DNA from: a virus
Lineage: Duplodnaviria; Heunggongvirae; Uroviricota; Caudoviricetes
Reading direction: 5' to 3' (one strand)
DNA length: 23,844 bases
IMG/VR virus record: IMGVR_UViG_2531839668_000007
The notes under the pieces were generated by a model. It did not search any database and was not told where the DNA came from. It worked only from the letters and a program-made list of their open reading frames with translations. The translations under genes and the position numbers were made by a program. Position 1 is the stretch's first letter; every line of letters starts with the position of its first letter. This document shows positions 10,494-18,977 of this stretch, one piece after another.

Positions 10494-11183
10494 TTAATCC
10501 AGTTTTGCAATATTTTGCTGTAAAAATGCTGCCTTTTGTTTTGAACGTGTTCTCGTCACAAGCAATAAAGCATCACTATCAAGCTGTAGAAAAATGTGCT
10601 TCATTGCAACCCAGCGTTCAGTAAATGTCTCGGACCAGTTTTTTGTTGTCACTCCCACCAATGATGCCAGTGTCTGGTATTCATAGGCCTCACGCCCTGC
10701 AAGTTCGCTCTTCACATCCTGTGCAGCCAGCCAGATTAACGTCTTCAGGCGATCCAGTGTCTTACCTGCAATTTTTCTGTTACTTAACAAATCCTTAAAC
10801 TCGCTCCATGCCCATTGCGTTATGGTGACCTGATGCCCCCATCGAACGCTTTCGCTGTAACACCAAAGCAACCATGCTTTCTGATGTTCATCGAGAGACA
10901 AAACCGCGCGGCGCCATGAAGAGGTTGAGAATTCAACCGGGCTGACCAAAGCAATGGATGAACCTTTTGCGTACGACTGCTTACCGGAAGTCGGCGTATT
11001 ATCCAGCGTAATCATCTTGCCAGTTACCACATCCAGAATGCGCGGCTTCTTTCGTTTGTATGTACCAGTATCAAATTGTGCATGCTCCTGCCAGGCTTCG
11101 AGCTGGCCTTTCGTTGCTCCGTTCAAGTCAGCAGTAGCTGCCATAAGTTGCTCACGAACATACTGTAAATATTGGGTATTCAT
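10494..11183 (-). CDS. Putative late-gene antiterminator Q-family protein (non-lambda Q type)
   Basis: Sits between the nin region and the lysis cassette, as Q does in lambdoid phages. The ORF runs to 11267 (GTG), but the ATG at 11181-11183 has a good Shine-Dalgarno sequence (AAAGGA) and gives 229 aa (MNTQYLQYVREQL...). The family call is from memory of ~230-250-aa lambdoid Q homologs, not from an alignment. Confidence 0.55.
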   Translation of the reverse strand: MNTQYLQYVREQLMAATADLNGATKGQLEAWQEHAQFDTGTYKRKKPRILDVVTGKMITLDNTPTSGKQSYAKGSSIALVSPVEFSTSSWRRAVLSLDEHQKAWLLWCYSESVRWGHQVTITQWAWSEFKDLLSNRKIAGKTLDRLKTLIWLAAQDVKSELAGREAYEYQTLASLVGVTTKNWSETFTERWVAMKHIFLQLDSDALLLVTRTRSKQKAAFLQQNIAKLD

Positions 11184-11657
11184 GCAGTAAATCCTTTCTA
11201 TATTTTGGCATAATTCTTCAACATTCGGTAATCGTTCAAAACCGAATCGGGGAAACGACATAAGCACAGGAGCCCCCAGCGACAGCGAAGGAGTTCTGAT
11301 ATATAAGACTCAGACATCATTCATTCCCCGGTTCTCCAATATCTGTTTCACTCATCATCCATAACTACCTGTAATTGCCCCCCCTTTTTTTGTAACAGTT
11401 CTTATATTGCTATATAGAATAGCCATTACTAATGCATTTAAATTTAATAAAATAAAAATTATAAAAACATAAAACACCACGCAAACACACTTAATAAAAA
11501 CACTGTTACATTAAAAGATAATAAAAACCGCAATAAAAAACGAATAAATCAATTGTCTCACGCAATTATAAAACATCATATTGATTACGCACCTTGTATT
11601 ACAAACTCATGTATGTAAAATACGCGCACCATTCAAAAAAAAGGAAGACAATAACAT

Positions 11658-12617
11658 ATGAAAAAAAGTGTCATCGCTGGCGTCTTTATTGCTCTGTCAT
11701 TTACCACGTGTTCAGCTATCGCGAACAGCCTTGCATTATCATTAGCAAATGATGATGCAGGGAAGTTTCAACCAATACTTAATGATATTTATGGCAATAA
11801 ACATGAAAACAGAGATGATTACTCACAAGGCTTATTTCTGGGATATAGCCACGATATCTCAGACTCGAGCCAATTATCTCTCCATATTGCGCAAGATATT
11901 TACTCTCCATCAGGCAGTAATAAAAGACACAACACAGCTGTAACTGGAGACAGAGCTTTTAGTGCATACACTCACACTGGTATTGAATGGAACTCCCTTG
12001 CGAATGACTGGATTCGCTATCGATTAGGTACTGACATAGGTGTTGTTGGCCCCGACGCAGGCGGTCAGAAAGTACAAAATAAAGCTCATGAGATTATTGG
12101 GGCAGAAAAATATCATGCATGGGATGATCAAATAGAGAATCGCTACGGTTATACTGTAAAAGGGATGCTATCCATGACACCAAGTATGGATATTTTAGGT
12201 GCTAATGTTGGATTATACCCTGAAGTTTCTGCTGTTACTGGAAACTTATTTCAATATGTAGCATATGGCGCAACCATTGCCATTGGTAATGATAAAACCT
12301 TCAATTCGGATAATGGCTTTGGTCTGCTGGCTCCCCGTGGTTTAATGCATATGTCCGATACAAGCGGATTCAAATACAAGATTTTTGCAGGTATGGAAAG
12401 ACGAGATGTCAATCGCAACTATACTCTCGAAGGAAAAACAATACAGACGAAACAAACAACAGTATCGCTAAACAAAACTGTTGATGAATATCAAGTTGGC
12501 GCAACAATTGGGTATGCACCTGTAGCCTTCACACTAGCATTTAATAAAGTAACATCAGAATTCAAGACAGGGGATGACTATTCATTTATAAATGGAGCAA
12601 TCACCTTCTTTTTTTAA
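11658..12617 (+). CDS. lpxR: Outer-membrane lipid A 3'-O-deacylase LpxR
   Basis: 319 aa; N-terminal signal peptide (MKKSVIAGVFIALSFTTCSA), C-terminal aromatic beta-barrel signature (...INGAITFFF). Matches Salmonella LpxR over its whole length as I recall it (ANDDAGKFQP, HIAQDIYSPSG, GDRAFSAY, TGDDYSFINGAITFFF). Shine-Dalgarno sequence AAGGAAG upstream; AT-rich; opposite strand to flanking phage genes. Confidence 0.85.
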   Translation: MKKSVIAGVFIALSFTTCSAIANSLALSLANDDAGKFQPILNDIYGNKHENRDDYSQGLFLGYSHDISDSSQLSLHIAQDIYSPSGSNKRHNTAVTGDRAFSAYTHTGIEWNSLANDWIRYRLGTDIGVVGPDAGGQKVQNKAHEIIGAEKYHAWDDQIENRYGYTVKGMLSMTPSMDILGANVGLYPEVSAVTGNLFQYVAYGATIAIGNDKTFNSDNGFGLLAPRGLMHMSDTSGFKYKIFAGMERRDVNRNYTLEGKTIQTKQTTVSLNKTVDEYQVGATIGYAPVAFTLAFNKVTSEFKTGDDYSFINGAITFFF

Positions 12618-12700: not shown

Positions 12701-12828
12701 ATAAAAGATTAAAAGTTGCAATAAAATAATAAAATGACTCAGTTACGAAAACCAATAAACTGTGGCCAGTAGTGAGTCGCTCATCATCGGGCTTTTTGGC
12801 GAATGAAATTTAGCTACGCTTTCGAGTC

Positions 12829-13494
12829 TCATGCGCCTTCTCCCTGTACCTGAATCAATGTGAGGTTTCCGCAGAACACTGCGCCAGTATCGATATACAT
12901 CTGGTTGGCAAATTTGAGTGGTTTCACTGCTGGCGTATGACCAAAGATGAACGTGTCCGCGCCTTTGATTTCTTTCACGATCCCGTCTTGTGAGTTGCCG
13001 ATTCGTTCGCGGTTCCAGATTACCTGCTGAGGATCAACTGGCTTTCCAAATTCGTATTCGTTACAAGGATAATCGGCGTGGCAAATGACATATTTTTTAT
13101 CTTTGCTCACCAGTTCGATGATTAACGGAAGTTCTTCTGCTTTATGGGCAAGAACTTTAGCCAGAGTCTCTTTGTCGTAATCGAGATTAAAGAACCAGCC
13201 ACCGCCATTAAGCAGCCAGTGATTAACGTTTCCACGCTCTGATAAGCCATCAATCATCATTTGCTCATGGTTTCCACGCACAGCTCTGAACCAGGGGAAT
13301 GTGATTAATTCCAGACATTCGACGTTCTCTGTACCGCGATCAACCAAATCGCCAACCGAGATGAGCAGGTCTTTTTTGGTGTCGAATCCAATCGTATCCA
13401 GTTTGTTCATCAGGTTCGTGTAGCATCCGTGCAGGTCGCCAGCTACCCAAATATTTCGGTATTTGCTGCCATCAATTCTTTCGTAGATATTCAT
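12829..13494 (-). CDS. Lambda-type Ser/Thr protein phosphatase (lambda orf221 / PPase homolog)
   Basis: 221 aa; phosphoesterase motifs GDLHG, GDLVDRG, GNHE; near-identical to lambda phosphatase as recalled ([30 protein letters not shown]...). The ATG overlaps the ninG stop. Confidence 0.9.
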
Positions 13495-13952
13495 GCAGCC
13501 TCACTTCTGCTGTTTCGCAGGTCTTTGAGTTTCTGTTGGTACTCTGCCTTGATCGCCTTGCACTCTTCGACAGTCCAGCGATGGCGGTTATGGTTTGATT
13601 CGATTTCGTCTACTGCTTCCTGCCCGATGCGGCTAATCAGTTCGACGCGATACGGAACGAGATTTCCGCTTTTGTGCTGGTTGCACACCACGCATTGCTT
13701 GTGAATATTGCGTTCATCAAATCGGAGTTGAGGTGCCGCAGCAGTTGTCCGGTAATGTCCGGCATCCCACTGAGCAGACGTGAGCGTTCCGCACGAGATA
13801 CATGGTAAGTCGCGGTCTCTTTCTCTGATGAAGGCGTTTACGGCTTGTTGGGCTTGTTTAATCCAGTAACTGCGGGGCTTTAAGGCGAGTTTTCGAATCT
13901 TAAGTTTATCTTTCTGTTTCTGCTCCTCTCGTCGTCGTTTCTTCTCTGCTGC
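13491..13952 (-). pseudogene. ninG: ninG 3' fragment (N-terminal ~50 codons missing, no start codon)
   Basis: The minus-strand frame is open from a TAA (plus 13953-13955) and reads [153 protein letters not shown], matching lambda NinG from about residue 50 to the end as recalled. The ORF-track start at 13691 is simply the first in-frame GTG. Confidence 0.8.
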
Positions 13953-13954
13953 TT

Positions 13955-14149
13955 AACGATGAAACCATGCAGGAGATTAACACTCTGCTGATCGCCCTGG
14001 ATAAAACATGGGATGACGACTTATTGCCGCTCTGTTCCCAGATATTTCGCCGCGACATTCGCGCATCGTCAGAACTGACACAGGCCGAAGCAGTGAAAGC
14101 TCTTGGATTCCTGAAACAGAAAGCCACTGAGCAGAAGGTGGCAGCATGA
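13955..14149 (+). pseudogene. bet: bet (Red-beta) 3' fragment, last ~64 codons only
   Basis: Reads [64 protein letters not shown], matching the C-terminus of lambda Bet as recalled. Homology starts 2 nt from where ninG homology ends on the other strand. The stop overlaps the exo start as in lambda. Confidence 0.8.
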
Positions 14150-14826
14150 CACCGGACATTATCCTGCAGCGTGCCGGGATCGACGTGAGAGCTGTCGAAC
14201 AGGGAGATGATGCGTGGCACAAATTACGGCTCGGCGTCATCACAGCTTCAGAAGTTCATAACGTAATAGCAAAACCCCGCTCCGGAAAAAAGTGGCCTGA
14301 CATGAAAATGTCCTACTTCCACACCCTGCTGGCTGAGGTTTGCACCGGTGTGGCTCCGGAAGTTAATGCTAAGGCGCTGGCCTGGGGAAAACAGTACGAG
14401 AACGACGCCAGAGCCCTGTTTGAGTTTACTTCCGGCGTGAATGTTACTGAATCCCCGATCATCTATCGCGACGAAAGTATGCGCACCGCCTGCTCTCCCG
14501 ATGGTTTATGCAGTGACGGCAACGGCCTTGAACTGAAATGCCCGTTTACCTCCCGGGATTTCATGAAATTCCGGCTCGGTGGTTTCGAGGCCATAAAGTC
14601 GGATTACATGGCCCAGGTGCAGTACAGCATGTGGGTGACGCGAAAAGATGCCTGGTACTTTGCCAACTATGACCCACGAATGAAGCGTGAAGGCCTGCAT
14701 TATGTCGTGGTTGAGCGGGATGAAAATTACATGGCGAGTTTTGACGAGATGGTGCCGGAGTTCATCGAAAAAATGGACGAGGCACTGGCTGAAATTGGTT
14801 TTGTATTTGGGGAGCAATGGCGATGA
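14146..14826 (+). CDS. exo: Lambda exonuclease (Red-alpha)
   Basis: 226 aa; near-identical to lambda Exo as recalled ([40 protein letters not shown]...GFVFGEQWR). Confidence 0.9.
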
Positions 14827-18299: not shown

Positions 18300-18977
18300 A
18301 TGTCCATCATTTTTAATGGACACTATCGTATGAAACACCGGACCTGGATCACTGAAGCTTTACGTCTTCACTTTGAAGAACATTTACCCCGGGTTGTGGC
18401 CGGGCGTCGCCTGGGTGTACCAAAATCAACAGTTTGTAGTATGTTCGTGCGCTTTCGGAGAGCTGGCCTTTCGTGGCCTTTGCCCGCAGGCATGTCGGAG
18501 CAGGAACTTGATGCCTGCCTTTACGGACAATTTTCCACGGTACCAGTCGTACGTCCTGAAAGCACCGTTATATCCGAAGCCCCCGTGGTAAAAAAACGTC
18601 CCCGGCGGCCCAACTTCCCTTATGAGTTTAAAATCGCCTTAGTGGAGCAGTCACTGCAGCCCGGAGCCTGTGTGGCGCAGATCGCCCGGGAAAACGGAAT
18701 CAACGATAACCTGCTCTTCAACTGGCGCCATCAATACCGGAAAGGTGGCCTGCTGCCTTCCGGAAAAAATATGCCGGCACTGCTTCCCGTGACGTTAACG
18801 CCGGAGCCGGATAATAAAATCCCGGCCCCCGCACAGGAACCAGAGCAGATAAATACACCGTCCGACAGTCTGTGTTGTGAGCTGATTCTGCCGGCCGGAA
18901 CTCTCAGGCTTAAAGGTAAACTGACGCCGGCGTTATTACAGACACTTATCCGCGAAATGAAAGGGAGCAGCCACTGA
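18300..18977 (+). CDS. tnpA: IS66-family accessory protein TnpA (orfA)
   Basis: The C-terminal half (RRPNFPYEFKIALVEQSLQPGACVAQIARENGINDNLLFNWRHQYRKG) has the helix-turn-helix region typical of IS66 orfA. The true start may be internal: the N-terminal ~75 aa carry an IS21-like motif (LSWPLPAGMSEQELDACLY) and may not be translated. The stop overlaps the tnpB ATG. Confidence 0.65.
   Translation: MSIIFNGHYRMKHRTWITEALRLHFEEHLPRVVAGRRLGVPKSTVCSMFVRFRRAGLSWPLPAGMSEQELDACLYGQFSTVPVVRPESTVISEAPVVKKRPRRPNFPYEFKIALVEQSLQPGACVAQIARENGINDNLLFNWRHQYRKGGLLPSGKNMPALLPVTLTPEPDNKIPAPAQEPEQINTPSDSLCCELILPAGTLRLKGKLTPALLQTLIREMKGSSH

Follow-up and report, generated by a model that had tools for sequence, protein, structure and literature searches.

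A deletion joint between ninG and bet in a lambdoid prophage remnant of Escherichia coli O157:H16, and a recurrent endpoint within bet

A prophage remnant of the lambda type carries fragments of ninG and bet joined head to head, and the block of early control and replication genes that separates the two in lambda is gone. The junction is real, and sequence comparison identifies it very probably as the scar of a single illegitimate deletion of that block. The initial annotation had read it as the loss of the whole immunity and replication region and was essentially right; the class of event is already known. The recurrence of the bet endpoint in other deletions is the sole feature that a specialist might not expect.

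The window, the whole stretch of 23,844 nucleotides that was analysed, is near-identical over its full length to the minus strand of E. coli O157:H16 str. 98-3133 (NZ_CP051001.1, 2367206-2391051), with the first base difference at window position 700. Most of a prophage remnant of about 24 kb, which sits between ybhB/bioA and ybhC at the lambda attachment site, lies inside this stretch. An attR-like core with one mismatch is found outside the window, 1.3 kb to the left of its start (position 6656 of locus L005); 0.07 such matches are expected from shuffled sequence. The features needed below are the following.

10494-11267 (PGAP 10495-11184), minus strand: second, non-lambda Q antiterminator (Pfam PF06323, E = 1.7e-91)
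11658-12617, plus strand: lpxR (lipid A deacylase) moron, on the opposite strand (PGAP; 960/960 identical to Sp3, locus L002, and to the Z1323HEC0423 prophage, locus L099)
12760-12834, minus strand: N-terminal 25-codon stub of a lambda-type Q, a further scar beside the lpxR moron (tblastn, Q residues 1-25, 88%)
12829-13494, minus strand: ninI (Nin221) serine/threonine phosphatase, full length, 221 aa (ORF; tblastn, lambda NinI residues 1-221, 93.7%; PGAP)
13491-13954, minus strand: ninG', codons 52-204 and stop, no start codon (blastn, lambda 42580-43043, 99.1%; translation)
13953-13954, no strand: deletion joint, TT assignable to either parent, a 2-nt microhomology (overlapping alignments; parental sequences side by side)
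13953-14149, plus strand: bet', codons 197-261, the whole Red-beta C-terminal domain (blastn, lambda 32221-32025; translation; phmmer)
14146-14826, plus strand: exo (lambda exonuclease), full length, 226 aa (ORF; tblastn, lambda Exo residues 1-226, 96.9%)
21160-22426, plus strand: lambda-type xis and int, both intact (tblastn, xis 72/72 residues, 98.6%; int 356/356 residues, 98.9%)
22500-22514, minus strand: attL core GCTTTTTTATACTAA, the prophage end adjoining ybhC (exact match)

The ninG-bet joint and the missing early region

In blastn against lambda, window 13491-13954 (minus strand) matches lambda 43043-42580, the 3' 464 nt of ninG, at 99.1% identity, and window 13953-14500 matches lambda 32221-31674 in bet and exo at 96.5%. 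The bet part of this second match comprises the 3' 197 nt of the gene (window 13953-14149, plus strand; lambda 32221-32025). The two alignments overlap by 2 nt, the TT at 13953-13954, and a megablast against a phage collection splits the query at the same base (1-955 versus 954-1901, E = 0). By translation and tblastn, the minus-strand frame encodes NinG residues 52-204, with a stop ahead of it and the start codon absent, and the plus-strand frame encodes Bet residues 197-261. The breakpoints that the initial annotation had placed at 13952 and 13955 are thereby correct within 2 nt, and its assignment of the two fragments is upheld. PGAP also lists ninG' and bet' as incomplete pseudogenes in the identical RefSeq records. 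An internal ATG at 13967 opens a 60-aa ORF in bet' whose stop overlaps the exo start, and phmmer pairs bet' with 6m9k_D and 8tfu_A (E about 1e-36), both PDB chains of the Bet C-terminal domain. As a predicted ORF, bet' is the crystallised Red-beta C-terminal domain (PDB 6m9k, 8tfu).

Both fragments lack their 5' ends, and they lie in the order and orientation expected for one deletion in the divergent pL/pR layout. In the orientation of the window, the pL operon (gam, bet, exo ... xis, int) runs rightwards and the pR operon (... ninG, ninI, Q) leftwards. Because these early operons diverge from the immunity region, removal of the middle leaves the 5' ends of ninG' and bet' touching, and no inversion is needed. 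The deletion starts in bet, at codon 196, takes out gam, kil, cIII, N, the repressor/cro region, cII, O, P, ren and further nin genes, and stops at ninG codon 51. In lambda coordinates the missing block amounts to 10,360 bp.

The joint itself points to joining almost free of homology, the TT being the only overlap. No IS sequence or repeat occurs in 13900-14000, the closest IS being ISCro1 at 18.3-20.9 kb. The joint retains no IS end of the kind that an IS-mediated adjacent deletion would leave: ninG and bet abut directly. The flanks are collinear with the parental order and orientation. Nor does the joint contain an att-core-like sequence that could point to an Int-mediated deletion; with up to two mismatches allowed, the matches in L005 are the two prophage ends only. 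A 2-nt overlap in the absence of an IS, repeat or att-like core fits RecA-independent illegitimate joining.

The initial annotation had allowed for an immunity region elsewhere in the prophage, for example through inversion. In a tblastn search of the ybhB-ybhC interval with every lambda early protein, gam, kil, cIII, ea10, ral, sieB, N, rexAB, cI, cro, cII, O, P, ren and ninB-F gave no match between the att cores. The matches obtained from this set were int, xis, orf60a/63/61, exo, the Bet C-terminus, NinG 52-204 and NinI, with minor matches to the N-terminus of Ea22 (short), a 25-aa Q stub and a 30-aa Rz stub. In the PGAP annotation of the interval, repressor and replication genes of every type are lacking, and Pfam scans of its hypothetical ORFs found no HTH repressor or replication domain; the only domains matched were a TraR/DksA zinc finger, Ead/Ea22 and a Q antiterminator. 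Between the att cores, then, the immunity and replication region is lost, as had been proposed, and no displaced copy lies in the interval.

We give hardly any credence to the proposal that the block was moved by inversion or another rearrangement, or that the junction is an assembly artefact; no evidence in favour of either was found. A moved block is contradicted by the complete genome, whose whole att-to-att interval is free of early genes, and an inversion by the two fragments, which are oriented as in a plain deletion. Among 5,426 complete E. coli genomes, 6 carry the exact ninG'-bet' joint, as does one contig of IMG/VR (L015), and its presence in six independent complete assemblies besides that contig shows that it is not an artefact.

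The genes kept by the remnant include the cargo nleH1/nleC/nleB2/nleD and lpxR, as annotated in NZ_CP051001.1. Exo, a phosphatase, Q-like, lysis and int/xis genes had been named as retained. By tblastn and Pfam, exo, the NinI phosphatase, the non-lambda Q, holin, RrrD lysozyme and int/xis are indeed present, but the lambda-type Q is reduced to its 25-aa stub (labelled 'antitermination protein, incomplete' by PGAP) and Rz is cut down to 30 aa. The Q stub is followed by the oppositely oriented lpxR, then by ylcG and then by the different Q.

Most head and tail genes are also gone from the remnant. A second large deletion scar lies at window 6633-7305, where the 5' part of the gene for the terminase large subunit runs directly into the 3' part of a tail assembly gene; this joint accounts for the loss of the portal, head and most tail genes, which Sp3 of strain SS52 still keeps. 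Upstream of xis, the window carries the IS66-family element ISCro1 (tnpA, tnpB and transposase; 18300-20915). FORC 064 has the same prophage without ISCro1 at this place, but with a copy near ybhB.

Without its early block the remnant would be unable to be repressed, induced or replicated, and it may be kept passively as a chromosomal island with T3SS effector genes and lpxR. The exo and ninI genes would be deprived of pL/pR and of N, and their expression, if any, would need read-through, fortuitous promoters or factors of other resident prophages. We infer on sound grounds, as the initial annotation did, that the kept genes would depend on other promoters. Promoter-like sites near the junction are at the level of chance (2 weak matches versus 2.5 expected from shuffles).

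Relatives at the same integration site

One relative is Sp3 of O157:H7 Sakai (CP-933K of EDL933), which like the window prophage occupies the site between ybhC and bio and has a lambda-type int/xis. The two have in common the lpxR moron beside the Q stub, the second Q, the lysis genes and the nleB2/nleC/nleH1/nleD cluster; compared with Sp3 of strain SS52, lpxR is identical throughout and the second Q at 773/774 positions. Their early joints differ. In Sp3, bet nt ~113 meets the final 31 nt of ninB, immediately ahead of ninE, whereas in the window bet nt 590 is joined to ninG codon 52. Sp3 therefore keeps ninE, ninF, the whole of ninG and 672 nt of bet, which the window does not, while the window prophage, unlike Sp3, is without most head and tail genes. 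The int gene is intact in the window prophage and was scored as disrupted in Sp3 (PMC2669165). Sp3 was described as being without CI/Cro and O/P and as having a disrupted Exo/Bet/Gam system (Asadulghani et al. 2009, PMC2669165). Sp3 was found not to circularise, replicate or be packaged, and most genes of non-inducible prophages, including Sp3, did not respond transcriptionally to mitomycin C (PMC2669165).

A second relative, the prophage of Z1323HEC0423 (L099), has the same site, the same late region and the same lpxR/Q' scar, together with a complete early region. This region encodes ninG, ninF, ninE, a methyltransferase, ninB, ren, P, O, cII, a cro-like gene, an HTH repressor, ral, cIII, kil, gam and bet, and its sole defect is an IS100 inside bet. 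The element (L099 18874-20825) interrupts the gene near nt 312, away from the recurrent endpoint described below. The stretch equivalent to the window deletion measures ~9.4 kb, with IS100 not counted. Since the Q stub/lpxR scar is 100% identical in Sp3 and in this relative with its early region intact, the scar is older than the immunity deletions.

The segments of the window differ in their closeness to the two relatives:

ninG': 462/462 identical to L099; 97.6% to Sp3 (11/462 positions differ)
Second Q and lysis genes: 100% to L099; 99.9% and 98.8%, respectively, to Sp3
bet': 193/195 to L099; 195/195 to Sp3

These identities favour an independent one-step deletion from an ancestor like L099. 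The ancestor was most likely a prophage resembling that of Z1323HEC0423 with the early region still present, and the window deletion is probably independent of the one in O157:H7 Sp3. The bet' fragment is closer to Sp3 than to L099, so mosaic recombination blurs the ancestry. The exo gene is 97.1% identical to that of Sp3 and the adjoining bet' is identical at 195/195 positions, which places a mosaic boundary at the bet/exo overlap.

A two-step history is conceivable, in which a Sp3-type deletion (bet nt ~113 to the end of ninB) was followed by a 1,005-bp deletion across its joint to give ninG'-bet'. L002 14954-15958, a segment across the Sp3 joint, is exactly what the window lacks in comparison with Sp3, and the perfect identity of bet', the integration site, the lpxR/Q' scar and the effector genes held in common would all agree with such a course. 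We nevertheless regard it as unlikely. The 11 mismatches place ninG' away from Sp3, yet the fragment matches L099, with its complete early region, at every position; to either side, ninI and exo reach only about 97% identity with Sp3; and, as intact relatives exist, a one-step deletion is available.

A recurrent deletion endpoint in bet

At least five different deletion junctions end at the position where bet is cut in the window, GGTT|AACG. Around it the lambda gene reads ...CACTCCGG TT|AACGATGAAACC..., and the classes are as follows.

Class 1: ninG' (lambda 42580), ...GCTGCTT, joined to bet' from AACGATG; window and L015; 6 genomes
Class 2: P' (lambda 39679), ...CTGCTGT, joined to bet' from AACGATG; L007, L017, L018; 7 genomes
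Class 3: gam codon 17 (lambda 33180), ...CCCCCTT, joined to bet' from AACGATG; L006, L010, L012; 21 genomes
Class 4: gam codon ~102 (lambda 32926), ...GCCATT, joined to bet' from AACGATG; L011, L014, L016; 7 genomes
Class 5: bet up to CGGTTAA, joined to intD'; L008 (3698-3704); the other side of bet is kept

The joints lie at window 13953-13956, L006 ~4002 and L007 ~4007, and that of class 5 has 7 nt of microhomology. All five classes fall within the 4-nt TTAA of the 786-nt bet gene, although three of them (classes 2, 3 and 4) came from a search at that very site. TTAA is kept at the joint in 5/6 related joints. The right-hand sides of classes 2, 3 and 4 are 99.7-100% identical in pairs, and these classes may represent one prophage lineage rather than fully independent ones. 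Two integration sites, argU and that of lambda, are represented among the junctions of the set.

An intact copy of the gene is present in 3,172 of 3,236 bet-carrying genomes, and among the bet truncations seen, only those of Sp3 and of strain E3 (about bet nt 648) lie away from TTAA. In the 80 exo-containing IMG/VR loci listed, bet homology is unbroken through the site, with three loci cut by a contig end inside bet, and this sample is uninformative on bet truncations. A search of GTDB species genomes gave no match, and a metagenome search gave one match, to the P'-bet' junction.

Three observations concern the gam side of these classes. The class 4 joint is in frame and predicts a fusion protein of Gam(1-~102) and Bet(197-261). 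Its seven complete genomes are mostly porcine ETEC, and the joint occurs with both intD/argU and lambda int/ybhC ends. A joint of gam codon 102 with int', adjoining ybhC (L101 2570-2600; in strain E2 and in at least eight further genomes), has the same gam endpoint (lambda 32926, ...GCCATT) and looks like a second deletion that started at the class 4 joint. In 36 of the 80 exo-containing IMG/VR contigs listed (L020-L094), lambda homology ends at the same point in the 5' part of gam (lambda 33193-33196), 13 nt from the gam codon 17 endpoint; this looks like a common mosaic boundary with short-gam alleles.

The shared bet endpoint resembles a deletion hotspot, and it makes 'random illegitimate recombination' an incomplete account of the mechanism. 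A site-specific lesion at GGTT|AACG (a double-strand break, a nick or an arrest of replication, for example) could have seeded the deletions, with one side lost over a variable distance and the ends rejoined by 1-3 nt of microhomology. Such a lesion would refine the mechanism of the single illegitimate deletion without contradicting it. We consider it a serious possibility, just short of an even chance. Four distinct left partners (in ninG, P and, twice, gam) meet one bet base, in exact joints found in several genomes per class and at two integration sites. The fifth junction retains the opposite side of bet up to CGGTTAA, the gam102-int' joint starts at the gam base of the class 4 joint, and just two bet truncations were seen elsewhere. 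On the other side, no agent was found among the candidates examined (hairpin, IS30, IS5, other insertions). The three classes recovered by a search at the exact site do not give the share of this endpoint among all bet truncation classes, and the near-identical right sides of classes 2, 3 and 4 could stem from one lineage.

The candidate agents were considered in turn. IS30 has a hotspot in lambda, LHS, at 33244-33498 and not at 32220. IS5 (target YTAR) would duplicate TTAA, but a chimeric bet-IS5 query found no such joint in the 5,426 genomes. Pattern scans of IMG/VR with an altered flank, which could reveal an insertion at the site, gave the known deletion classes only, or nothing. A stalling hairpin was rejected: a 6-bp CCGG stem ends at the site, and the folding energy is ordinary (z = -1.56, not significant, and -1.14). 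An HpaI-like blunt cut at GTT^AAC fits poorly, because all four left partners end in T, indicating that microhomology with the TT of bet was used, and because the gam102 joint lacks GTTAAC and yet seems to have been reused. A crossover by a serine recombinase would also fit poorly, as the joints do not agree on one central dinucleotide and the partner sites have no common motif. A literature search for a deletion hotspot in the lambda red region found nothing relevant.

We put forward tentatively, and with a little less assurance than the lesion itself, the idea of a true sequence-specific fragile point: the TT|AA in GGTTAACG (bet codon 196/197, lambda 32219-32222), where recurrent breaks or arrests would start one-sided deletions. 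Deletions from such a point would extend leftwards into gam, P or ninG and rightwards into int.

Comparable deletions have been described in EHEC, where IS excision promoted by IEE is accompanied by IS-adjacent deletions with one fixed and one variable endpoint, from a few nt to >40 kb, that are rejoined by microhomology-mediated end joining (PMC9943667). Their geometry matches that of the junctions sharing the bet endpoint, and the likeness goes no further than geometry. Unlike in those deletions, there is no IS at the bet site, and none was found inserted there in the scans of IMG/VR or, for IS5, of the E. coli genomes.

Prophage decay and the fixing of an effector island

Loss of the early region by deletion is an ordinary route of prophage decay. 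DLP12, Rac and Qin of E. coli K-12 are grounded lambdoid remnants from which immunity, replication or morphogenesis blocks have been deleted while scattered genes remain intact. The window remnant resembles them in having lost blocks by deletion and kept some intact genes; it differs in its integration site (argU for DLP12) and in its cargo. Prophages at the DLP12 site of other strains carry the P'-bet', gam'-bet' and bet-intD' joints at the same bet base as the window. With 7 of 5,426 genomes, the P'-bet' joint is not the common DLP12 structure. As Sp3 was already published as being without repressor and replication genes, and as RefSeq labels both fragments as pseudogenes, the finding is correct but ordinary.

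The junction documents the permanent fixing of one effector-carrying prophage in an atypical EPEC O157:H16 lineage, a pattern already described for Sp3 of O157:H7. Together, the intact relative in Z1323HEC0423, the Sp3-type deletion and the window-type deletion form a natural series at one locus. If the reuse of the bet site is true, prophage decay would be steered in part by a specific DNA site and would not be purely random, and this site would offer a simple sequence for a deletion assay. With a fragile point there, one-sided deletions would strip recombination, immunity and replication genes from lambdoid prophages, and the window deletion would be one outcome of a shared mechanism of prophage domestication.
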